Part shown: one piece after another, positions 1 through 8,626 of the stretch
How positions within the stretch are numbered: position 1 is the stretch's first letter
Layout of the letters: every line of letters begins with the position of its first letter
From: a virus
Taxonomy: Monodnaviria; Loebvirae; Hofneiviricota; Faserviricetes; Tubulavirales; Inoviridae
Virus record (IMG/VR): IMGVR_UViG_2663762939_000001
Coordinates: 1-8,626 of that record
Reading direction: 5' to 3' (one strand)
Length of the DNA: 8,626 bases
Made by a program: the position numbers and the translations under genes
The notes under the pieces: model-generated
What the model saw: only the letters and a program-made list of their open reading frames with translations
Database searches by the model: none
Told to the model about the DNA's origin: nothing

Positions 1-15
1 TACATTATGCGCACC
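1..15 (-). other. Partial dif-like XerC/XerD recombination site (XerC arm plus first 4 nt of central region), truncated by the window edge
   Basis: Reverse complement of 1-15 is GGTGCGCATAATGTA, identical to the E. coli dif XerC-binding arm GGTGCGCATAA plus TGTA of the central region (dif = GGTGCGCATAA-TGTATA-TTATGTTAAAT). The rest of the site would lie beyond position 1. Confidence 0.6.
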
Positions 16-395
16 AATGGTAAGGATGGCAGAATCTGGCGGGAATCGTTGACACTTGGCGTCAACTGGCTACTATCGATAGTGATTCAAAATCATCCGT
101 TTCTCCAAACGAATCAGAATCAAATGTCTGTCAGCAGTAAGTGAACGGCCTGACCTCACCAATCAGGCCTGTTCATCCAGTTGCAGTTGGTAAATCTGTA
201 CCTGATACATGAAACCTTCCCCAGAAATACAGCCACAATGTCAGATAAGATGAACGCTGCCGCGCCGAATCAGCTATAACGCTCAAAATGAAAACTGTAC
301 GGCTTGGCCAACCCCGGACAGCAACAAAACGAGTTTTGTCACTGACCGGAGTTTACGATAACTTCGTAAGCATTAAATTTTAGCGGCTAAAAAGT

Positions 396-644
396 TCACC
401 ACCACCATGCAAACGGCTTGTTACTGACAGGAAATGCGATACCGTCAGCATCACGACCACGCAAGACCTGATTAAGAAGCTTTCTGACTTCACGGCGCTC
501 TGGCCGGGTCATCATCATATTGCGATACCAGGACGGTGATTTATCAAACCACCTAGAACAACTGGTAAAATGTGAACCAACACGACGGTAAGACTTCATG
601 CGACCACCGGGAAGTCGATCGCGCACCCTGCTTTTTACAGACAT
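396..644 (-). CDS. Hypothetical small basic protein (82 aa, Arg/Lys/Trp-rich), function unknown
   Basis: ATG at 644..642 preceded on the minus strand by AGAGG and a 6-nt spacer (plus 645-656). The protein is strongly basic with no motif I recognise. It sits between gIV and the dif-like end. Confidence 0.4.
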   Translation of the reverse strand: MSVKSRVRDRLPGGRMKSYRRVGSHFTSCSRWFDKSPSWYRNMMMTRPERREVRKLLNQVLRGRDADGIAFPVSNKPFAWWW

Positions 645-794
645 AAAAAACCTCTAATTAATTGAATCACCTAGAAGATGTCTTTCTGTTCATATCCTGT
701 CAGTTTTAAGGCCATATAGAGGCTCCGTGGTGAAACGTAAAATCCGGCTCTTGATGTGGCCATACCGGGGCTTAACGCACCCGCCACGGCCCCA

Positions 795-2060
795 TCAAAG
801 CGTGCGAATAATATGAGCGGTCAGCAGAACATACATAATGCGTTGCTCATTACTGTCAGCTTTACTCCTGAAAAGCCAGCCAATCACCGGAATTTTACTG
901 ATAAACGGTACAGAACGGTCAGCATTGCTGGATGATGAATCAATCAGCCCACCAAGTAAGAGCGTCTGGCCATCCTTAATCTGAACTGTTGTCTGTATCT
1001 GACGCTGGTTCGTAATAATATCAGATGCCTGGTCATCGTTGCTGATGGAATCAGCGCGGGTATCAATAGTAAGTACAAGCTGGCCGTTCCCCATAACAAC
1101 AGGCGTCACCTTCAAAGATACGCCAACATCATGACGTTCAATGGTCTGAAACGGATTATTTACCCCGGCAGATTCACCCGTAACTTTACCCGTGATAAAG
1201 GGTACATTTTTACCAACAGAAATATAGCCTGTCTGACCAGACTGGGTAAGAATCCGGGGCGTTGAAATCACCTTAGACCGGGAGTTACTCTGCACCGCAC
1301 GCAGGGATACGGCCAGAACATTACCATCAAAAATGCCAAAAGAGCCGCCGGCAGTCGACAATGCGCTACCCAATGCTGAAGTATTAAAGCCCCCTGCTAC
1401 TTTATGCCCGGATGCAGAACCGGCTGCAAACGACAAATCAACACCATCCGACAGACTGGTTTCAAACATCAGCGACTGAATCAATACTTGGTCACGGGCA
1501 ACATCCACAGAATTGATAAAATCGGACAGAACCGGCAGCAGCTCGTCAGGAGCAGAAACAATCAGCGAGTTATTACCTGGATAATCCACGACATTACCAC
1601 CGCCATTAGAATCAAGATAAATTTTAACCAGTTGCTGAACATCGGACGATCTAACTTTTGTCAGCTTAAAATTTCTGACCGTAAGCGCCACAGGTACTGG
1701 CTGGTAAGATGGCTCAGAAGGAAAAGTATCATAAGACTGGTTATCAGAATCATCGGAACCCGAAACCATCTGCGAAGGTAATTTAGACGGCAAAGAGACT
1801 ACCGCAGGATTGCCAGAAAGCATGACAAACCCGTTAGCATTCAGAACAGACTTAAAGAAATCATCAATATTTGTTGGATTAACATCAGCATTAAATACGG
1901 TTACATTTCCTTTAACATCAGGATTAACAATAACAGGCTTGCCAGTTTTTGAAGAATACCACTGAACAAATGAGCGAACAGATGAATTATTTAAATTAAC
2001 AGTTTCAGCAGAAACGCAGAATGAACAGGCAAATAAAAAAGCAACAATAACAGAGCGCAT
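795..2060 (-). CDS. Secretin, filamentous phage export channel (pIV-like, GspD/PulD secretin family)
   Basis: The C-terminal region (…GGLIDSSSSNADRSVPFISKIPVIGWLFRSKADSNEQ…) resembles a secretin domain. An internal ATG at 2060 gives a signal-peptide-like N-terminus (MRSVIVAFLFACSFCVSA) with AGGAG about 10 nt upstream. The ORF extends to an ATG at 2153, but that start would overlap gI by about 86 nt. Last gene of the Ff-like order. Confidence 0.8.
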   Translation of the reverse strand: MRSVIVAFLFACSFCVSAETVNLNNSSVRSFVQWYSSKTGKPVIVNPDVKGNVTVFNADVNPTNIDDFFKSVLNANGFVMLSGNPAVVSLPSKLPSQMVSGSDDSDNQSYDTFPSEPSYQPVPVALTVRNFKLTKVRSSDVQQLVKIYLDSNGGGNVVDYPGNNSLIVSAPDELLPVLSDFINSVDVARDQVLIQSLMFETSLSDGVDLSFAAGSASGHKVAGGFNTSALGSALSTAGGSFGIFDGNVLAVSLRAVQSNSRSKVISTPRILTQSGQTGYISVGKNVPFITGKVTGESAGVNNPFQTIERHDVGVSLKVTPVVMGNGQLVLTIDTRADSISNDDQASDIITNQRQIQTTVQIKDGQTLLLGGLIDSSSSNADRSVPFISKIPVIGWLFRSKADSNEQRIMYVLLTAHIIRTL

Positions 2061-2067
2061 AATAATA

Positions 2068-3162
2068 TTACTCCTGACAGGTAACAGTCTGTAAATAACG
2101 GCCTTTTCTAATAACAATACGACAGGCATCTTTAATATCAACGAAATAACCATCTTTAATCAAATCAAAATACTGATATTTCATACCTTTAGCATCAACA
2201 AACGTAACGGAAACGTCAAAGCCAAGTTGTGAAAAAGAATTAATAGAAAGTCGGGGTAAGTCACTGGACGAATCAGGCGTTACCGCCCTCGCCTGTTCAG
2301 CATAAGCAGATTTAATAGCTGAGATTTCATCAACATTCTTTCCAGACTGGAGCCAGAAACCAAGCCCAAGCCCCAGCGCCAAAAAAGAAAGCATTAATAT
2401 AAGACGGTTCGATTTGCGAAAATAAATTTTAGTGAGGCGCATATAATAATTAAATCCTCTGTGAACAGAAAATTGACCGTGCGTGATAAATGGTGGTAAA
2501 AGCGAAAATGCGCCATGAGGATAATTATCTGTGAACGCTTGTTTGGTATTGTAAGCAGAATAAAGAGATTTTCCTGTATATATCCATTTATCAACAGTGA
2601 TTGAATTAACATTATCACCATATTTGACAATGCCAAAGTGTACCTTTGGTAAAGAAAATCGAGCCCCTGAAACCAAATTCATAATGGAGCCAACAAAAGG
2701 AATGTTTAATTTATCTGAACGGCGACAATAAACAACATGCTCAGCAAGCGCCAGACGAGCTTGCTTATCCATTATCGAAATATCCTGAATCAAAAATATA
2801 ATATCCCAGCCTAATTTTCTGGCATGTAAAAACCAGTCAATAACAGGTTGTCTGTCTTTATCACCCCATGAGCGGGAATTAAACCAAGTACCACATTCAT
2901 CAAGTACAAGGAGGCCATTACGGGATTCATCGTAAGATGTATTCCCAATACCAATAGCAAGTAAATCATTTAATGAAGGCTTGTCAGGAACGCGAATAAC
3001 GCGCGTTTTTTTCGCATAACGCCCAACCATAGGCATATTATGCAATTTAAGGTCAAGATTAGTGGCAACAGGACAACCCTTAGCAAGTCTTTCCTGTATT
3101 CTGGAAACACTAACAAGTGTCTTGCCTGAGCCTAATTTGCCTGTTACTACATGAACCGCCAT
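2068..3162 (-). CDS. Zot-like assembly ATPase (pI-like, zonula occludens toxin family)
   Basis: N-terminal Walker A motif GKLGSGKT (residues 8-15), a single hydrophobic TM segment (LILMLSFLALGLGLGFWL) and a C-terminal periplasmic-type domain. Size 364 aa and position between gVI and gIV fit pI/Zot. Confidence 0.8.
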   Translation of the reverse strand: MAVHVVTGKLGSGKTLVSVSRIQERLAKGCPVATNLDLKLHNMPMVGRYAKKTRVIRVPDKPSLNDLLAIGIGNTSYDESRNGLLVLDECGTWFNSRSWGDKDRQPVIDWFLHARKLGWDIIFLIQDISIMDKQARLALAEHVVYCRRSDKLNIPFVGSIMNLVSGARFSLPKVHFGIVKYGDNVNSITVDKWIYTGKSLYSAYNTKQAFTDNYPHGAFSLLPPFITHGQFSVHRGFNYYMRLTKIYFRKSNRLILMLSFLALGLGLGFWLQSGKNVDEISAIKSAYAEQARAVTPDSSSDLPRLSINSFSQLGFDVSVTFVDAKGMKYQYFDLIKDGYFVDIKDACRIVIRKGRYLQTVTCQE

Positions 3163-3504
3163 TTAAATCACCCTGTTTGCATAATCAAGAAATTTTTGTT
3201 TTAAATCGAAAACAAAAACACTGATACGAGTAACCATAATAACGTTAACACACGCCTGAAAATGGTCAGGCAATACAGATGCCATTAAATGAGAAAAATC
3301 AGCGGGTAACCCGTTATACATGACCTCAGCAAGATACTGCATTAAAAGCGTAACAGTTGTTGTAATTAGCGCGACCAATGCAACCGCTATTAAACCTGTT
3401 TTGGTTGCAAGCCGAGCTAAAAAACTTGCAACATAGCCAATAAGCAAAGGAACAAGACCAATAAGAAAACGCAACAATGCAGGAATACCTAATAATAAAG
3501 GCAT
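3163..3504 (-). CDS. Minor coat protein, pVI-like (hydrophobic, about 113 aa)
   Basis: Highly hydrophobic protein lying between gIII and gI, as in Ff phages. The ATG at 3504 shares a base with the gIII stop (TGATG) and has GGTGG upstream. A GTG at 3507 is an alternative start. Confidence 0.55.
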   Translation of the reverse strand: MPLLLGIPALLRFLIGLVPLLIGYVASFLARLATKTGLIAVALVALITTTVTLLMQYLAEVMYNGLPADFSHLMASVLPDHFQACVNVIMVTRISVFVFDLKQKFLDYANRVI

Positions 3505-4748
3505 CACTCACCACCTTTACGAAGCAATGAAGTTAAAGAAGTAAAGACATACCAGAACGTAAGGCAATAAAAAACCCATGAAAGAGCATCTTTAATAGTC
3601 AGCAATTTATCGCAACCAATATCAATCTGATAAACCTCTCCGGGAAAAATGATAAAATCAGAACAACCATTACCATTAGGTAAATTGGGCAACATAGCAC
3701 CTTTATTTAAGAAAGCCTCCCATAACGCACCATGAGAATCCTTTGCAATTCCTAATTCAGATTCAGCTAAAGTGGAAGCGCTATCTAATTCAGAATCCCC
3801 CTTCCCATAACGGGAATCACCGCCAGAAGGATCAGCAAAACGTCCGGCTCCGCGAGTAAGGTTATTTATAGCGTCACCAAGACGATTTATATTATTTTTA
3901 GTCTGTTCATCAGCCGACTTTTTATCATCAGATGAGGTGTCTTTTTCTGTTAACTTATCATGAATCTCACTGGCAATTTTAGGTGAAGCACCTTCGATAG
4001 CTGACTGAATATCTCCTTTGGTAATACTTGAGTCATTACCACCGCCAGAACCGCCGCCTGAGTTACCACCGCCTGTATCACCTCCTCCAGTATCACCACC
4101 CCCCGTATCCCCGCCTCCAGTATCACTGCCATCGCCAGCAGGAGAAGAAGGCTTATCTGAAGGATCGGCTACGGTTCCGGTAGGCTTCCATGTCGCAGCA
4201 CAAACAGTGCCATCATTCTGGCAAACAATGACGCCAGTGGCCTCATATTCACAACCGTTATAATAAATATAACGATCACCGTCATAAGAATAGACATTAT
4301 TGAATACACCTTCTTCGGGTGGTTTAGCTTCACAAATCTCTTCAGGCGTAGGCTCGGAAGGTTTTTCATCAGGAATAGATCGTTGAATATCACCTATAAT
4401 ATAAGCGGTTAAAGTCCAGTATTTATCTTTCTGGCCTGGAGAGTCGCTGTAAGTACAAGCGTCAGAAAACACAAGACGGAATTCAGAGTTAGGCCATACT
4501 CCCTCATAAGTTGGTTTAACCTGAGTAAAAACACCCTGAGCACTGTCTTTAGCACCCTGACAAGCAGAAGCCTGCATCGCTGCATCAATATAATAAACAG
4601 TTTGTTTAGCGCCATCTTGGTTGGTTATTTGCTTACTTTCAGCATATGCAGAGCTTTGAAAAGTAGATTTAGTAATGCTTTCCCATGAATCAGCATATGA
4701 AAAAGAAGAAATAAGAATAGCGGAAATGATTAATATATTCCTTTTCAT
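3504..4748 (-). CDS. Adsorption / minor coat protein, pIII-like, with signal peptide and Gly-rich linker
   Basis: Signal-peptide-like N-terminus ([19 protein letters not shown]), Cys-containing N-terminal domains, a (GGGDT)n/GGGS linker at residues ~205-239 and a hydrophobic C-terminal anchor ([15 protein letters not shown]). Follows gVIII as gIII does in Ff phages. Confidence 0.75.
4032..4136 (-). repeat. Tandem 15-nt codon repeat encoding the Gly-rich (GGGDT)x4[12 protein letters not shown] linker inside gIII
   Basis: Direct periodic repeats are visible in the DNA (…ccgcctccagtatcaccacc… units) and in the translation. The plus-strand Pro-rich ORF 4018-4263 is its antisense shadow. Confidence 0.7.
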
Positions 4749-4766
4749 AATAACCCGCTTTAATAA

Positions 4767-4784
4767 AGGGGCACGAATGCCCCT
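4767..4784 (-). terminator. Hairpin between gVIII and gIII (candidate intrinsic terminator/attenuator)
   Basis: Inverted repeat AGGGGCA / TGCCCCT (4767-4773 and 4778-4784) with a 4-nt loop, followed on the coding (minus) strand by a T-rich tract. It sits where Ff phages have a rho-independent terminator after gene VIII. Confidence 0.45.
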
Positions 4785-4793
4785 AAGTGAATT

Positions 4794-5036
4794 TTAAACT
4801 GCTTTGGAAGCGAATTTTTTAAAAATACGAATGGCAAGGCCTGCACCAACCACAGCAACAACGACAGGCCATACTTTACCAATAAGATCATTTGCCTGAG
4901 TCAGCAATGCATCCATTGCCTGACCTGCATAATCAGTCCCGCCTGTAGTTCCATCAGCCGCAAAAGAACTGGCAGAAACAAAAAGAGCTGTTGAAGCTAC
5001 TGCAATTTTAGATTTAACAAAAGACAAAACTTTCAT
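4794..5036 (-). CDS. Major coat protein, pVIII-like
   Basis: 80-aa precursor with a signal peptide (…VSASSFA|ADGTT), an acidic mature N-terminus, a hydrophobic core (VWPVVVAVVGAGLAIRIF) and a basic C-terminus (KKFASKAV). GGAG lies upstream of the ATG at 5036. Confidence 0.8.
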   Translation of the reverse strand: MKVLSFVKSKIAVASTALFVSASSFAADGTTGGTDYAGQAMDALLTQANDLIGKVWPVVVAVVGAGLAIRIFKKFASKAV

Positions 5037-5055
5037 ATAAATAACTCCATTAAGG

Positions 5056-5151
5056 TTACATTAAGCGGTCAGAAAATGATTTAAATGAACCGACCGCATA
5101 GAAAAGGGCAAAACCGAAGGTATAAGCCCCGAAAAAATAAGCTATATACAT
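5056..5151 (-). CDS. Small hydrophobic virion protein, pIX-like (31 aa)
   Basis: Hand translation of the minus strand gives MYIAYFFGAYTFGFALFYAVGSFKSFSDRLM. The ATG overlaps the stop of the upstream small ORF (TAATG). Size and position between gV and gVIII match Ff gVII/gIX. Not in the supplied ORF track because it is too short. Confidence 0.45.
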   Translation of the reverse strand: MYIAYFFGAYTFGFALFYAVGSFKSFSDRLM

Positions 5152-5237
5152 TAACGAAAAACCCCCGCAGTAATTGCGCCGAGGCCAAAAGAGATAACAA
5201 TGCCTGACGCTATTAATATTTGTATAACATCAGCCAT
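5151..5237 (-). CDS. Small hydrophobic virion protein, pVII-like (28 aa)
   Basis: Hand translation gives MADVIQILIASGIVISFGLGAITAGVFR. It starts 2 nt after the gV-like stop and is coupled to the next small ORF through a TAATG overlap. Confidence 0.45.
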   Translation of the reverse strand: MADVIQILIASGIVISFGLGAITAGVFR

Positions 5238-5239
5238 AT

Positions 5240-5557
5240 TTAACCTTTTATTTCAGTGATTCCACCATCAGATGAAATGTTATAAGTTACCCCCTCCCTA
5301 CCTTCCATTGACCATACACGAACATAAACGGGGATCTGAACTAACTTTCCGATAAAGCTGTTAGCCTGATTCATTACACCGGAATTCACCAAAGCTTGTG
5401 ACACACGAATAATAATCTGGTCTTGCTTGGTACCACCAAAGCCATCAGGGGTCTCTAAGCCAATACCAATTTCATTATAATAACCCTGCCCATTAATTTT
5501 ATTACGCTGACGAGCACCAAGCATCTTACCTTTCACGAAAAGACCATAATTAGACAT
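5240..5557 (-). CDS. Putative ssDNA-binding protein (gV-like), assigned by position
   Basis: 105-aa protein directly downstream of the replication initiator, with a strong RBS (AGGAGA, 5-nt spacer). The assignment rests on synteny and size, not on a recognised motif. Confidence 0.5.
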   Translation of the reverse strand: MSNYGLFVKGKMLGARQRNKINGQGYYNEIGIGLETPDGFGGTKQDQIIIRVSQALVNSGVMNQANSFIGKLVQIPVYVRVWSMEGREGVTYNISSDGGITEIKG

Positions 5558-5568
5558 ATCACTCTCCT

Positions 5569-6633
5569 TTAGTGCCAGCTACTGGCATGTGAAATACGGT
5601 TGTAATCGAAAATTAAACCTTTCTCATAAACCCATGATGGAATTTTGGCTGGTTTAGCCTCAAGTGTTCTTACTAATGGAACAATATTATTTGAATCAGG
5701 GGATTCACAATAAAAATTAATATCTATCCCAAAAGACAGTAATTCTTTACGATGCCTGTAAAATGTTGGCTTTGGAAGCATTTCTTTCATATTTGCGCCC
5801 TGCTTCCATAACAAATATGTAGACTGTATTTTTCTTGGGAGATTAATTATCTTTTCATCAGTTAATATAGTATTTTGATTCATTTCTATTCTCCCTACAT
5901 AGTCAGAGAATACTTTATTAGGCGTCTCAATATTCCAGTTTTTACCAAGCGTAAGATTCAAATCAATTAATTCGGTTGTTCTTAATGTTAATTCAATACG
6001 TAATTTATCTTTTGACCAATCCAGTAAACCAGCGTTAACAAATTCATCTGCTATCTGGTGCCCTTTTTTTCCAGATGTATGCTCATCATATTTAGAGTAA
6101 AATTTCAGGCTCCAACGACGGGAGTTTTTTCCCAAATAGACCGTTCCCCCTTTGCCACAGGCGCGACCATGACGAGTTTTTGCTTTAAACTCTGCGGCAT
6201 AAAGCCATGCCCGCACATTTTCCAATGTTGATAATGAATACATGTAATTAATATCAACACGGGAAATCTTATATTGCCCTGTCATTACCTGACGATAGGA
6301 CGGAAGGTCATGGGGAATATGAAGTAATGCCAGTATTCTCGCGTAAGCTGTCAATACCAGTCCTTGCAAATCGTCGGAACCAATAACCGAATGTCCCTGA
6401 AGAAATTTTGACGGATTACCATCAATATAAAGATGTGTTGCCCGGCCTTCGCCATCGGATCCAACTGATCTTACTTTCATTGTAGATTCGTACGAACCGC
6501 GAACAGTCAACCGTTTTACTGTTTCCCACTCCACTGCACCATCAGCATCAACGCTGACGACACTACCAGCCGGTAACGGTTGGTGCGTGCAAGGCAGGAT
6601 TCCAGTAAACCAGTCGATCATAAGTAGCCACAC
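5569..6633 (-). CDS. Rolling-circle replication initiation protein (gII / RstA-like)
   Basis: 354-aa protein at the head of the minus-strand module, resembling phage/plasmid replication initiators. The track start at 6633 is GTG; the first ATG is at 6621 (MIDWFTG…), so the exact start is uncertain. Confidence 0.75.
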   Translation of the reverse strand: MWLLMIDWFTGILPCTHQPLPAGSVVSVDADGAVEWETVKRLTVRGSYESTMKVRSVGSDGEGRATHLYIDGNPSKFLQGHSVIGSDDLQGLVLTAYARILALLHIPHDLPSYRQVMTGQYKISRVDINYMYSLSTLENVRAWLYAAEFKAKTRHGRACGKGGTVYLGKNSRRWSLKFYSKYDEHTSGKKGHQIADEFVNAGLLDWSKDKLRIELTLRTTELIDLNLTLGKNWNIETPNKVFSDYVGRIEMNQNTILTDEKIINLPRKIQSTYLLWKQGANMKEMLPKPTFYRHRKELLSFGIDINFYCESPDSNNIVPLVRTLEAKPAKIPSWVYEKGLIFDYNRISHASSWH

Positions 6634-6792
6634 CCATCAAAATATGTGTCAATAGTCATTTGTGAGCAAATTGAGTGGTCACAATGTAATATGCTCAGAT
6701 CTGACAGTCAATACATTTGCAATGTTTAAATTGTCAGAAATGAGCATCAAATCTAACTATTGAAAAACCACTGTTAAGATGGAGCCAAGTAG
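6634..6792. promoter_or_regulatory. Divergent intergenic control region between gII (minus) and the HTH regulator (plus), with operator-like inverted repeats
   Basis: Imperfect inverted repeat 6691-6707 (atgctcagatctgacag) and 6731-6747 (ttgtcagaaatgagcat), 14 of 17 matching, with a perfect 10-bp palindrome tcagatctga at 6695-6704. Also TTGTGA-N13-TCACAA at 6660-6684. A possible leftward promoter is -35 TTGCTC (plus 6664-6669) and -10 CATATT (plus 6641-6646). GGAG at 6781-6784 precedes the regulator ATG. Confidence 0.5.
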
Positions 6793-7239
6793 ATGGGCAA
6801 CAATGAGCATGATGATATGGCGGACAAGCAGAGAGCAGAACGTATCAAAAAGGTAATTCTGGAAAACTCGACTTATGAAGAACTGGCCGAGAAAACCGGT
6901 ATTAGCGTTAGCACACTGGTCAGAATAGCGTCCGGCAAAACTGAGCCTAAATTCAGTGACATAATTCAGATAGCTAAAATTACGGGTGCAGACTTGAACA
7001 CCCTTGCTTATGGCTATGCTATTGATGTTAAAGAAGAAGCTACTGAAAGGAAGTTAATCACTTCCGCAGACGGTTACACTGATGAAGAAACCACTAACGC
7101 CCACAATTTCATTGTGTGGAACATCAGAACACTGAATAAACAAGATATTCTGGCTCTCTCAAGGCAAGTTTCTGCATTAAGTTCATATACTTACAGTACG
7201 AAAATGTTTATGAAAAAAGTAGTGTCAGGCGAAGATTAA
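6793..7239 (+). CDS. HTH (XRE/Cro-C1 type) transcriptional regulator, candidate phage repressor
   Basis: The N-terminal region (…TYEELAEKTGISVSTLVRIASGKTEPKFSDIIQIAKITGADLNTLAYG) resembles a helix-turn-helix XRE domain, followed by a C-terminal extension of about 70 aa. It is transcribed divergently from gII, like RstR in CTXphi. Confidence 0.75.
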   Translation: MGNNEHDDMADKQRAERIKKVILENSTYEELAEKTGISVSTLVRIASGKTEPKFSDIIQIAKITGADLNTLAYGYAIDVKEEATERKLITSADGYTDEETTNAHNFIVWNIRTLNKQDILALSRQVSALSSYTYSTKMFMKKVVSGED

Positions 7240-7249
7240 AGGGTTTAGC

Positions 7250-7296
7250 AGTCTCAGGAATGAGACTAACGTGCAGTATTACCAACACTGCACGTT
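7250..7296 (+). terminator. Two tandem hairpins downstream of the regulator gene (candidate terminator/attenuator)
   Basis: Stem 7250-7256 / 7261-7267 (agtctca / tgagact) with a 4-nt loop, then stem 7268-7277 / 7287-7296 (aacgtgcagt / actgcacgtt) with a 9-nt loop, followed by cTTTATT. Confidence 0.4.
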
Positions 7297-7338
7297 CTTT
7301 ATTGTGTGAATTTTGAACAGTGAAAAAGGATCAAAAGG

Positions 7339-7761
7339 ATGAGTAGAAATAACGAAACAAGCGGCGTTGAACTGGTTGTCGTGGGCGTATTTGCTTTCTG
7401 TCTGGCAGTTGTTGCCTGGCTAATGAAAACTTTCGATGTTGAATGGCAAACAGCACTGGAAACTGCGCCTGGCCTGATAGTCTGGCTGCTTGTTGTCGGT
7501 GCGGGGATCTTTTTCGGGATCAAAATGGAAACTGGCCTTATTCGCTGGGGTGCTCCACTGGCGATCGCCCTTCTGATTCCGGTATTCAAGCCAATTCTTA
7601 AGGAAGCTGCCGGAGTTCGTGAAACGGGTGGGCTGGTTTTCGATGATATGGTTTCGTGGTATGGAACTGGCTGGGGAATGTCTCTGATGTTCTTCGGGAT
7701 TCTTATTGTCGGATATGGCCTGCTTTATTGGTGGCACAGAAGAAATTCATATTACTGGTAA
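7339..7761 (+). CDS. Small integral membrane protein (140 aa, about 4 predicted TM helices), function unknown
   Basis: Four hydrophobic segments (about residues 10-28, 44-62, 69-83, 112-131) and a Trp/Tyr-rich C-terminus. AAGGA lies about 9 nt upstream of the ATG. The overlapping minus-strand ORFs are low-complexity antisense shadows. Confidence 0.65.
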   Translation: MSRNNETSGVELVVVGVFAFCLAVVAWLMKTFDVEWQTALETAPGLIVWLLVVGAGIFFGIKMETGLIRWGAPLAIALLIPVFKPILKEAAGVRETGGLVFDDMVSWYGTGWGMSLMFFGILIVGYGLLYWWHRRNSYYW

Positions 7762-7789
7762 TCAATAAAACGTAGAAGAGAGGAAACAT

Positions 7790-8065
7790 ATGAAACTGAA
7801 TCCTGAGAAATACAATAGAAACATCACCCTGCTATGTCCTGTGTGCGGAAATACAGAGATGGAACACGAGGAAGAGTCTGAAGTCGTCAGATGTGTAGGC
7901 TGCGGGAAAGAATTTACTAATGATGAATTAATCCAAGAAAACGGGGTGAGTATTGACGCCCATGTAGATGAAATAAAAGAAGAGTTAACAAAAGACATTC
8001 AAAAACAGTTTGGTGACATGCTCAAAAAGGCATTTAAGGGAAGTAAGAATATAAGGATCAAATAA
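7790..8065 (+). CDS. Small zinc-ribbon protein (91 aa; CPVCG…CVGCG), function unknown
   Basis: Two CxxC pairs (C16/C19 and C35/C38) form a putative zinc ribbon, followed by a charged helical tail. Strong RBS (AGAGAGGAAACAT-ATG). The stop overlaps the next gene's start (TAATG). Confidence 0.65.
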   Translation: MKLNPEKYNRNITLLCPVCGNTEMEHEEESEVVRCVGCGKEFTNDELIQENGVSIDAHVDEIKEELTKDIQKQFGDMLKKAFKGSKNIRIK

Positions 8066-8544
8066 TGACAACAAGTGATGCCATCGCTTTAGCTGCGCTT
8101 GTAGTATCGATTTACACTATCATATCGTCAGAAATGAAATCGAGAAAAAGCGATAGAGAACAAAGGGTTATAAAGGATGAGCAAGACAGGTTACGTAAGT
8201 TGCTTCTGGAAAAAGAAACAAAGTCAGCAATTAATGAGATGAAAGCTGAGCTTGGTGCTCGCCTCGTAAAAATAGCCAAAAACAACTATAGGCTCAAGAT
8301 ATTTAATAGAGGGAGGGTTGAGGCTAAAAATATAGAGATTCATTTCCCTGATAACGATGGAAATGAATATCTTTCAATGCATGATGTAGAAGATAAATTT
8401 CCATATGAGGTATTACACCCGCAACATGGGATTGAAATTTTAGCGGGAATAAGCTTTGGAAGTAAAACTAAATACCGAATAAAACTCATATGGGATGACA
8501 ATTATAAAAGAAGAAATGAAGAGGAGTTTTTCATTTCTATATAA
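8065..8544 (+). CDS. N-terminally membrane-anchored protein (159 aa) with charged helical linker and beta-rich C-terminal domain, function unknown
   Basis: N-terminal hydrophobic helix (AIALAALVVSIYTIISS), a Lys/Glu-rich predicted coiled region, then a C-terminal domain. AAGGA RBS with 7-nt spacer. Translationally coupled to the zinc-ribbon gene. Confidence 0.65.
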   Translation: MTTSDAIALAALVVSIYTIISSEMKSRKSDREQRVIKDEQDRLRKLLLEKETKSAINEMKAELGARLVKIAKNNYRLKIFNRGRVEAKNIEIHFPDNDGNEYLSMHDVEDKFPYEVLHPQHGIEILAGISFGSKTKYRIKLIWDDNYKRRNEEEFFISI

Positions 8545-8574
8545 ATTGGTTCGCACAATGACGTTATGCTAAAG

Positions 8575-8612
8575 AGGCCGCTGCGGGATTCGATTTTCGC
8601 AGCGGCCTTTTC
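8575..8612 (+). terminator. GC-rich hairpin plus T-tract (candidate intrinsic terminator), core of a longer imperfect palindrome
   Basis: Stem AGGCCGCTGCG (8575-8585) / CGCAGCGGCCT (8598-8608), 12-nt loop, followed by TTTT (8608-8611). The arms extend imperfectly to 8562-8585 / 8598-8621, 21 of 24 matching. Confidence 0.5.
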
Positions 8613-8626
8613 AACATAACGAGTCG

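Follow-up and report, generated by a model that had tools for sequence, protein, structure and literature searches.

What does a filamentous phage carry in three small genes that lie between its repressor gene and the end of its genome and that look like none of its core genes? The question is raised by an Inoviridae genome, IMG/VR record IMGVR_UViG_2663762939_000001, whose 8,626 nucleotides were analysed in full and are here called the window. On the plus strand, downstream of a helix-turn-helix (HTH) repressor gene, the window encodes a protein with four hydrophobic segments (g1), a small zinc-ribbon protein (g2) and a protein with an N-terminal transmembrane (TM) anchor (g3) (Table 1). A preliminary description, made from the sequence without database searches, had joined the three in one cassette next to the repressor and proposed a role in defence or a related process. 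The present analysis separates them. The first gene belongs to the phage, while g2 and g3 form an exchangeable pair that is, with a probability of roughly 55%, a stand-alone module of the defence type, be it anti-phage, abortive-infection or exclusion.

The description of the individual genes proved accurate in most respects. The three plus-strand open reading frames (ORFs; 140, 91 and 159 codons) are present as listed in Table 1, each preceded by a purine-rich ribosome-binding site (RBS), and g2 and g3 share a TAATG overlap. The spacing of a zinc ribbon is found in g2 (C16-x2-C19, 15 residues, C35-x2-C38), which has no membrane segment, and the four hydrophobic segments of g1 and the single N-terminal TM segment of g3 are likewise there. 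None of the three resembles the core morphogenesis or regulatory families of inoviruses (pI-pIX, G2P/G5P, RstA/B/R) in Pfam, PHROG or NCBIfam, and their placement in an accessory position of the prophage was borne out. The statement that none of them belongs to a known family is right for g1 and g3, which have no Pfam or NCBIfam family, and wrong for g2, a member of NF047912; all three fall into PHROGs of unknown function. They are real genes under purifying selection, with dozens to hundreds of homologues each. Ratios of nonsynonymous to synonymous substitution (dN/dS) computed against Escherichia coli ST131 orthologues range from 0.04 to 0.12 (g1 and g2, 0.04; g3, 0.12), more distant orthologues give 0.06-0.09, and g1 stays at 0.04-0.09 over all orthologues compared.

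The limits of the exchangeable unit are set by comparison with a sibling phage (L099). This sibling is 94.7% identical to the window over positions 2-7761, the latter being where the g1 stop codon ends, is unrelated from 7762 until 8545, one base past the g3 stop codon, and is 98.8% identical from there on. The breaks in identity at 7761 and 8545 thus define a cassette of exactly 7762-8544 that consists of a 28-nt leader, g2 and g3. Since the cassette in the window holds these two genes alone, the pair must work by itself. At least nine different cargos are found downstream of g1 in related phages, three of which carry AbiJ, TIR or restriction endonuclease (REase) domains (Table 1); several others have no recognised identity. 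With its conserved flanks, variable contents and defence domains, the slot displays the features of an accessory/defence hotspot of filamentous prophages.

One further occupant of the slot, in E. coli UTI89, is a 369-aa protein with TM segments that replaces g2-g3 (L127:9632-10741; also L106:6029-7153) and that has no Pfam or PADLOC family. A stretch of this protein, TVTNKGKEKEKNVTITIP, recalls LKIFNRGRVEAKNIEIHFP of g3. A relationship between the two was considered and dropped as evidence, the hhalign probability being 12%.

The two genes of the cassette, coupled in translation and horizontally mobile as a pair, are bound to each other far beyond this phage. A g3 profile scan, restricted to one genome per species, returned 80 loci that span Gamma-, Beta- and Alphaproteobacteria, Bdellovibrionales, Leptospirales and other groups. 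At 74 of these 80 species-level loci g2 lies directly upstream of g3, which is every locus that could be judged; the remaining six were uninformative, with g3 at a contig start (three), on a 219-bp fragment (one), frameshifted (one) or reduced to a short internal fragment (one). No gap in 82 unique pairs exceeds 35 nt; 59 of the pairs have genes that overlap or directly adjoin (-4, -1 or 0 nt), and the pairwise identities of g2 and g3 are correlated across the whole set (r = 0.76). The g3 family amounts to 1277 clusters at 50% identity, and its members are mostly about 145-165 aa long, with some shorter fragments, among the 150 best matches listed. Three or four of the 80 loci are associated with inoviruses, as judged by markers at L017 and L023 and by g1 alone at L018. 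Locus L017 (JARKOR010000214.1) is labelled as a Candidatus Nanosynbacter metagenome-assembled genome; its g3 is 99% identical to that of the window and is accompanied by g1, g2 and inovirus core genes of enterobacterial type, and it is probably a misbinned contig. A tblastn search of 50,697 sequenced phage genomes gave no match to g2 or g3, which argues against a gene of the phage life cycle or of counter-defence.

Outside inoviruses, the pair is found in the company of defence genes. It adjoins SIR2-nSTAND and type I restriction-modification (RM) genes, follows BrxR, type I RM and Mrr in a P4-like island of Proteus, and lies among AIPR, DprA, mSLOG and DUF4326 genes in Agarilytica. On Klebsiella plasmids it is set among TacAT, ParDE and NACHT genes, in E. 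coli islands it comes after type III RM, DUF4391 and SNF2 genes beside ArdA and an integrase, and in Serratia it is carried by a conjugative plasmid. About ten loci on MOBH integrative and conjugative elements (ICEs) from different marine genera have the pair directly upstream of traI-traD-DUF4400, and the block upstream of it alternates between type I RM with Mrr, McrBC, and type III RM. Near-identical pairs are seen in SXT-like MOBH ICEs of Alteromonas, Shewanella, Colwellia, Marinomonas and others (L062-L073, L078, L081, L095), always directly upstream of traI. That position in SXT ICEs is defence hotspot 5 (bioRxiv 10.1101/2020.12.16.423150). When the 140 nearest genes, two per side at 35 non-redundant loci, were compared with PADLOC models, matches were obtained to a CBASS cyclase, TIR effectors, GajA, HamB, AriA, BovA, AbiLi, MADS and a type I REase; the systems represented near the pair include CBASS, Gabija, Hachiman and PARIS. 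A defence-type role is the best supported for g2-g3 because sibling slots hold AbiJ-like, TIR and REase-like genes and because defence genes neighbour the pair outside inoviruses. The defence, abortive-infection or toxin-type role first suggested for all three genes is retained for the pair and withdrawn for the trio.

The products of the pair have few recognisable relatives. NCBIfam places g2 in NF047912, the 'ECs_2282 family putative zinc-binding protein' (65.3 bits, cut-off 37, profile positions 1-60 of 60), and 39 homologues all keep residues C16, C19, C35 and C38. An AlphaFold2 (AF2) model of g2, with a predicted local distance difference test (pLDDT) score of 80.5, comprises a three-strand zinc ribbon, a helix over residues 52-82 and a tail of low confidence. 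This tail, AFKGSKNIRIK, is nearly invariant and better conserved than the rest of the protein; conservation together with low model confidence is typical of a motif that is ordered on partner binding, as may apply here. In the PDB, sequence-profile and Foldseek searches with g2 returned generic zinc ribbons only. The comparison with PADLOC-DB v2.0.0 gave partial matches over the zinc ribbon, to positions 195-252 of 339 in PDC-S64 (E = 4.5e-7) and 239-291 of 358 in HEC-08 (E = 2.8e-4). Two identities considered for g2 were rejected on their scores: an antitoxin of the MqsA/YgiT type (TIGR03830, 19 against a cut-off of 61.8 bits; TIGR03831, 15 against 20.2), g2 being also without an HTH, and a Lar restriction-alleviation protein (PF14354, 19.8 against 28.6; TIGR03655, 13.3 against 39.6).

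For g3, the AF2 model (pLDDT 81.5) shows a continuous helix over residues 3-59, made up of the TM segment and a charged stalk, followed by a seven-strand beta-sandwich over 63-158 that is immunoglobulin (Ig)-like. The family has no lysine or arginine before the TM helix and 4.9 in the next 15 residues, an asymmetry that implies an N-out/C-in orientation and hence a sandwich predicted to be cytoplasmic. The invariant residues (K78, N81, G83, A87, K111, P113, W143 and D145) are unlike a catalytic set. No Pfam or NCBIfam family includes g3, and its best PDB match by sequence profile, a flagellar cap, is not meaningful at E = 0.02. A holin was considered and rejected: the match to phrog_1350 is weak and covers the TM segment and stalk (E = 0.0027), no endolysin is encoded in the window or at the 80+ loci, and to our knowledge inoviruses do not lyse their hosts. 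A toxin of the MqsR/RelE fold was rejected as well, an Ig-like sandwich being predicted instead. Neither protein has a catalytic fold or a full-length match to a known defence system in PADLOC-DB v2.0.0.

The predicted topology allows a mechanism to be sketched, which as a specific proposal is doubtful. An N-terminal TM helix would tether g3 at the inner membrane, with the stalk and Ig-like domain in the cytoplasm. There g2 would be its partner, probably docking on g3 through the long helix and the invariant C-terminal tail, and could serve as a sensor or regulator of g3. On a phage cue, the complex might perturb the membrane through oligomerisation of g3, or might block genome entry. The module would in this way protect the lysogen and, with it, the prophage.

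On its right side the slot is closed by an element of about 80 nt that combines a dif-like site (GGTTCGCACAA-TGACG-TTATGCTAAAG) with a GC hairpin and its T-run (GGCCGCTGCG...CGCAGCGGCC-TTTT) and with an inverted partner, CAACATAACG. An alignment of nine contexts shows it preserved after each of the cargos examined, and as single-stranded DNA it has a fold of -22 kcal/mol (z = -5.3). It is the likely attP/Xer substrate and, at the same time, the likely terminator of the operon. Ypfphi-type phages carry inverted XerC/D sites (PMC4266046), which the single-stranded fold of the element fits. Homologues of the element at about 93% identity are present on some 440 mostly conjugative enterobacterial plasmid records, and copies lie at L005:8899-8972, L003:~8762-8831 and L126:3501-3571. 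The element stands behind g2-g3 on Klebsiella and Serratia plasmids too, and one IncF plasmid has it right behind an AbiJ-like STM4504/CBY_0614 gene with 61% identity to the L099 cargo. Units of cargo and Xer site may thus be shared by, or move between, inoviruses and plasmids, either by Xer recombination or by homologous exchange. We tentatively propose a fuller version of the defence reading, in which the pair would be an autonomous, non-enzymatic anti-phage system, composed of a zinc-ribbon sensor and, under its control, a single-pass membrane protein whose cytoplasmic Ig-like domains would come together in a complex that perturbs the membrane or blocks entry, and would move as 'cargo + Xer-site/terminator' cassettes among filamentous phages, plasmids and ICE hotspots. 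Such a system is widespread, with roughly 1300 clusters (50% identity) that reach from Enterobacterales to Alpha- and Betaproteobacteria and Bdellovibrionales.

Several observations weigh against a defence-type role. The association with defence genes is a qualitative enrichment given without a genome-background comparison; many neighbours in the 35-locus survey are housekeeping or mobility genes, and one metagenomic lineage (L128-L132) has no defence neighbour. The PADLOC matches of g2 cover less than 20% of the PDC-S64 and HEC-08 models and do not include their effector domains, and g1 and g3 match no family of PADLOC-DB v2.0.0 at E values up to 1. A consensus scan for sigma-70-like promoters on the plus strand, the leader at 7238-7338 included, gave none for the cassette. 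In one g3 lineage (at least 90% identity) it is the pair that is constant, at the edge of a variable RM hotspot, which also fits an accessory, regulatory or mobile-element-backbone role. Finally, two inoviruses (L107:9535-10419 and L112:8237-9121) have a gene for a g3-like protein of 155 aa directly after g1 and no g2, so that g2 is not strictly required. The same arrangement makes g3 look like the core component and g2 its usual partner. The g3-like gene of these two phages is followed by a gene for a 123-aa protein with 47% identity to the product of a third gene (127 aa) behind g2-g3 on a Klebsiella plasmid (L005:8517-8900); neither small protein has a Pfam family, and the gene is limited to one Klebsiella plasmid lineage and the two inoviruses.

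A second explanation is that the pair is chiefly an addiction module resembling a toxin-antitoxin (TA) system, in which g3 would be a membrane toxin and g2 its neutraliser, together stabilising the prophage, plasmid or ICE, with defence as a secondary effect. The gene order is suggestive, since a small upstream gene followed by a second gene with an overlap of 1-4 nt, as at most loci, is reminiscent of type II TA operons, and on Klebsiella plasmids the pair is found among TacAT and ParDE. There is also a faint likeness of g2 to the MqsA/YgiT zinc ribbon (TIGR03830, E = 9e-4; 3ga8 low in the Foldseek list), and inoviruses are reported to carry TA modules as accessory genes (PMC11630473; see also PMC12328805 and PMC11341870). 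This explanation is nonetheless unlikely. All TA models score far below their cut-offs, as the TIGR03830 values given above illustrate, g2 lacks a DNA-binding domain with which to autoregulate, no known toxin fold is present in g3, and g3-like genes that stand without g2 in L107 and L112 would be unexpected for a toxin that depends on g2.

Less probable still is an accessory or regulatory part in restriction-defence hotspots, comparable to that of BrxR/WYL at the other edge of SXT hotspot 5 or to a Lar-like modulator. The g3 lineage with at least 90% identity speaks for it, being constant directly downstream of type I RM with Mrr, McrBC and type III RM blocks that vary. So do the best Pfam match of g2, which is the sub-threshold Lar_restr_allev (E = 9e-4), and the weak similarity of g2 to the C-terminal zinc ribbon of HEC-08, a validated HEPN defence protein (bioRxiv 10.1101/2024.01.29.577857). 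Yet in the window, as in its siblings, the cassette stands alone, the phage having neither RM nor other defence genes, and most of the 52 g3 clusters do not adjoin RM genes. The Lar models remain below their cut-offs at the scores quoted above, and a membrane anchor would be unexpected in a modulator of restriction.

It is similarly improbable that g2-g3, g1 or both serve the inovirus itself or its dealings with an animal host, through homotypic superinfection exclusion, control of integration or replication, or as a virulence moron in the manner of CTXphi ctxAB; such a role would concern mainly g1. Here g1 has the better claim: it tracks the inovirus lineage, and small inner-membrane proteins are typical superinfection-exclusion factors. 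Ypfphi and CUS-1 have modest in-vivo fitness effects, and resident Ypfphi partly protects against superinfection (PMC4266046). As for g2-g3, at least 95% of the loci lie outside inoviruses and are spread across free-living environmental Proteobacteria, and there is no secretion signal or host-targeting domain.

What is known of g1 agrees with a gene of the phage. Its hydrophobic segments lie at residues 10-28, 43-61, 65-83 and 111-129; it corresponds to PHROG 4174 (1.5e-85), where no function is assigned, and it has no match in Pfam, NCBIfam or PADLOC. It occurs in 22 inovirus contigs of IMG/VR with variable cargo downstream. Three of these hold g2-g3 (one is cut inside g2), and two more hold a g3-like gene without g2. 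Among 5426 complete E. coli genomes, 127 have a full-length g1 and 28 have g2-g3. An inovirus of Yersinia enterocolitica has g1 followed by unrelated genes, with no g2-g3, g1 stands alone in Mixta, and UTI89, a CUS-1-type lysogen, shares both the HTH gene (95% amino acid identity) and g1 (96%) with the window. This gene is part of the semi-conserved backbone of the phage lineage and also the left homology arm of the cargo slot. Because its distribution is restricted to the lineage and its product is of inner-membrane nature, homotypic superinfection exclusion is a reasonable guess for g1.

A three-component system of g1, g2 and g3, in which membrane protein, zinc ribbon and anchored protein would act together, is extremely improbable: the genes share a strand, are separated at g1-g2 by a gap of 28 nt with no terminator, for which reasons they are probably co-transcribed in this phage, and occur together again in 28 genomes of E. 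coli and in a few further Enterobacterales, but g1 is missing at 77 of 80 g3 loci, most g1-bearing inoviruses lack g2-g3, unrelated cargo follows g1 in Yersinia, UTI89 and IMG/VR phages, and the recombination breakpoint parts g1 from g2 precisely at the stop codon of g1. The single unit assumed in the preliminary description is thereby contradicted by the differing distributions of g1 and g2-g3, and its recurrence as a conserved trio in other genomes, a check set in advance, was seen at only 3 of the 80 g3 loci.

The carrier is well defined. The window is one complete unit of a dif-integrating filamentous phage of the CUS-1/Ypfphi type, as shown by its core genes, the dif-like attP element and the location of related prophages at dif. 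Core inovirus Pfam matches are PF05144 (2.9e-73), PF05155 (2e-33) and PF17426 (3.3e-51). The E. coli homologues of the element lie in the dif region, adjoining hipBA, often in tandem copies, and there the end of the window joins its start. The closest protein matches of g1-g3 come from Salmonella enterica and E. coli (97-99% identity), and the sole match of the whole window to phage genomes by megablast is a pIV fragment of IKe/PEar at 80%. E. coli EC5502 (NZ_CP092647.1) gives 16 separate matches each to the g1 region and to the g2-g3 cassette, which points to a very long tandem array or to a prophage present many times over.

Upstream of g1, the repressor (Pfam HTH_3, 1.1e-9; PHROG 3557 'transcriptional regulator') belongs to a module of its own. 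The block 6621-7237 is swapped in siblings L097, L103, L109 and L001, while 792-6620 and 7238-7761 remain homologous; homology to siblings that have another regulator restarts exactly at 7238. In these four siblings and in L014, unrelated small regulators replace the repressor and the upstream intergenic region, and the variants look like heteroimmune ones, as known for CTXphi rstR. As the repressor module is swapped independently, its closeness to g1-g3 is incidental. The leader that follows contains two hairpins, agtctca/tgagact (7250-7267) and cgtgcagt/actgcacg (7270-7294), the latter followed by a T-rich run.

Two other parts of the window were noted. The pIII gene has a glycine-rich repeat (3950-4130, minus strand), the usual flexible linker of inovirus receptor-binding proteins, which accounts for a local rise in GC content. 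Positions 1-794, from attP to the secretin gene, hold only short ORFs, such as one of 82 aa on the minus strand (396-644). Conservation among siblings is no more than patchy here (1-41, 253-353, 249-716), and the region is the counterpart of the attR-proximal ORFs that have been reported from Ypfphi and CUS-1.

Table 1. Features of the window and cargos found in the corresponding slot of sibling phages.
Feature	Position	Strand	Description
Secretin gene	795-2153	-	
Zot/pI gene	2068-3162	-	
pVI, pIII, pVIII and small coat genes		-	
G5P gene	5240-5557	-	replication
G2P gene	5569-6633	-	replication
Immunity/regulator module	6621-7237	+	HTH_3 Cro/CI/RstR-like repressor gene and divergent intergenic region; outside the cassette
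HTH repressor gene	6793-7239	+	followed by g1, g2 and g3
g1-module leader	7238-7338	+	conserved; two hairpins
g1	7339-7761	+	140 aa; four hydrophobic segments; semi-conserved accessory gene of CUS-1-type inoviruses
Cassette leader	7762-7789	+	g2 RBS GAGAGGA; left edge of the exchangeable cargo
g2	7790-8065	+	91 aa, predicted cytoplasmic; CPxCG...CxxC zinc ribbon, 30-residue helix (52-82), tail AFKGSKNIRIK
g3	8065-8544	+	159 aa, predicted single-pass membrane protein; TM ~6-24, coiled-coil stalk to 59, Ig-like sandwich 63-158
dif-like attP/terminator element (likely)	8545-8624	+	~80 nt; right edge of the cargo slot
Slot cargo, sibling phage			AbiJ_NTD4 + DUF7014 protein (PADLOC PDC-S32)
Slot cargo, sibling phage			DpnII/MboI-type REase-domain protein (PADLOC Aga_Helical-REase) + DUF6953
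Slot cargo, sibling phage			CAP12/Pycsar-type TIR protein

If g2-g3 does protect against phages, it would constitute a compact, domain-poor system of 0.78 kb, built from a zinc ribbon and a membrane-tethered Ig-like domain. It would also mean that the small dif-integrating prophages of E. coli, Salmonella, Klebsiella and Yersinia, the virulence-linked CUS-1/Ypfphi group included, bear interchangeable defence cargo, as has been proposed for Vibrio, and this could explain the end-of-genome ORFs of CUS-1/Ypfphi and the fitness benefit of keeping such prophages. The element of about 80 nt, which stands behind varied cargo in phages and on plasmids by the hundred, suggests a route by which cargo could be exchanged. 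New defence candidates are common, and should the pair have no defence phenotype, the locus would still be a clear example of an inovirus exchanging modules, otherwise ordinary.

Set against known systems, the type of the carrier phage, the presence of defence cargo in a filamentous-prophage hotspot and the family name of g2 are already established. The pair itself matches no PADLOC v2 system; its architecture is unusual and its family large. No published description of the g2-g3 pair was found, literature searches for ECs_2282, PDC-S64 and PDC-M14 yielded nothing, and the E. coli screen of Vassallo et al. has no matching system. The nearest catalogued relatives are those of g2, which passes the NF047912 threshold and whose zinc ribbon and helix align to parts of PDC-S64 and HEC-08 that are internal or C-terminal; NF047912 says nothing of function, and a counterpart of g3 is missing from all three. 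HEC-08, a validated defence protein made up of HEPN and a zinc ribbon (bioRxiv 10.1101/2024.01.29.577857), was on account of that composition rejected as the same system.

With respect to genomic position, SXT/R391 hotspot 5 (LeGault et al., bioRxiv 10.1101/2020.12.16.423150) shares the site upstream of traI and an RM-bearing block, and 'hypothetical genes' are also reported from it. The pair is absent from that paper, however; it is found in many contexts other than ICEs, and the ICEs that carry it are only SXT-like. By general analogy, the RexAB pair of lambda is similar in being prophage-borne and non-enzymatic, with one membrane and one cytoplasmic part and a presumed action at the membrane. 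The two pairs have no relationship in sequence or fold, and RexB has four TM helices whereas g3 has one.

The closest comparisons are with other filamentous phages. CUS-1 of E. coli O18:K1:H7 and Ypfphi of Yersinia pestis have the same genome plan, G2P/G5P module, RstR-like repressor, integration at dif and tandem arrays by hipBA. Their attL-proximal ORFs differ between phages and are of unknown function, those of Ypfphi at the slot position (YPO2271/2272) being without database homologues (PMC4266046). No Y. pestis homologue of g1, g2 or g3 appears among the protein matches listed, and the CUS-1-type prophage of UTI89 differs in having the 369-aa TM protein in place of g2-g3. In marine Vibrio, the accessory hotspot of filamentous prophages shows an enrichment of defence and TA genes (ISME J 2024, PMC11630473). 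Common to that hotspot and the slot described here are a variable locus between conserved flanks, contents exchanged between close relatives and integration at dif by host Xer. Here, in contrast, the cargo matches no catalogued defence system, the phage is an enterobacterial one of the CUS-1/Ypfphi type, the slot abuts the attP/dif-like element, and this element also travels with cargo on plasmids.

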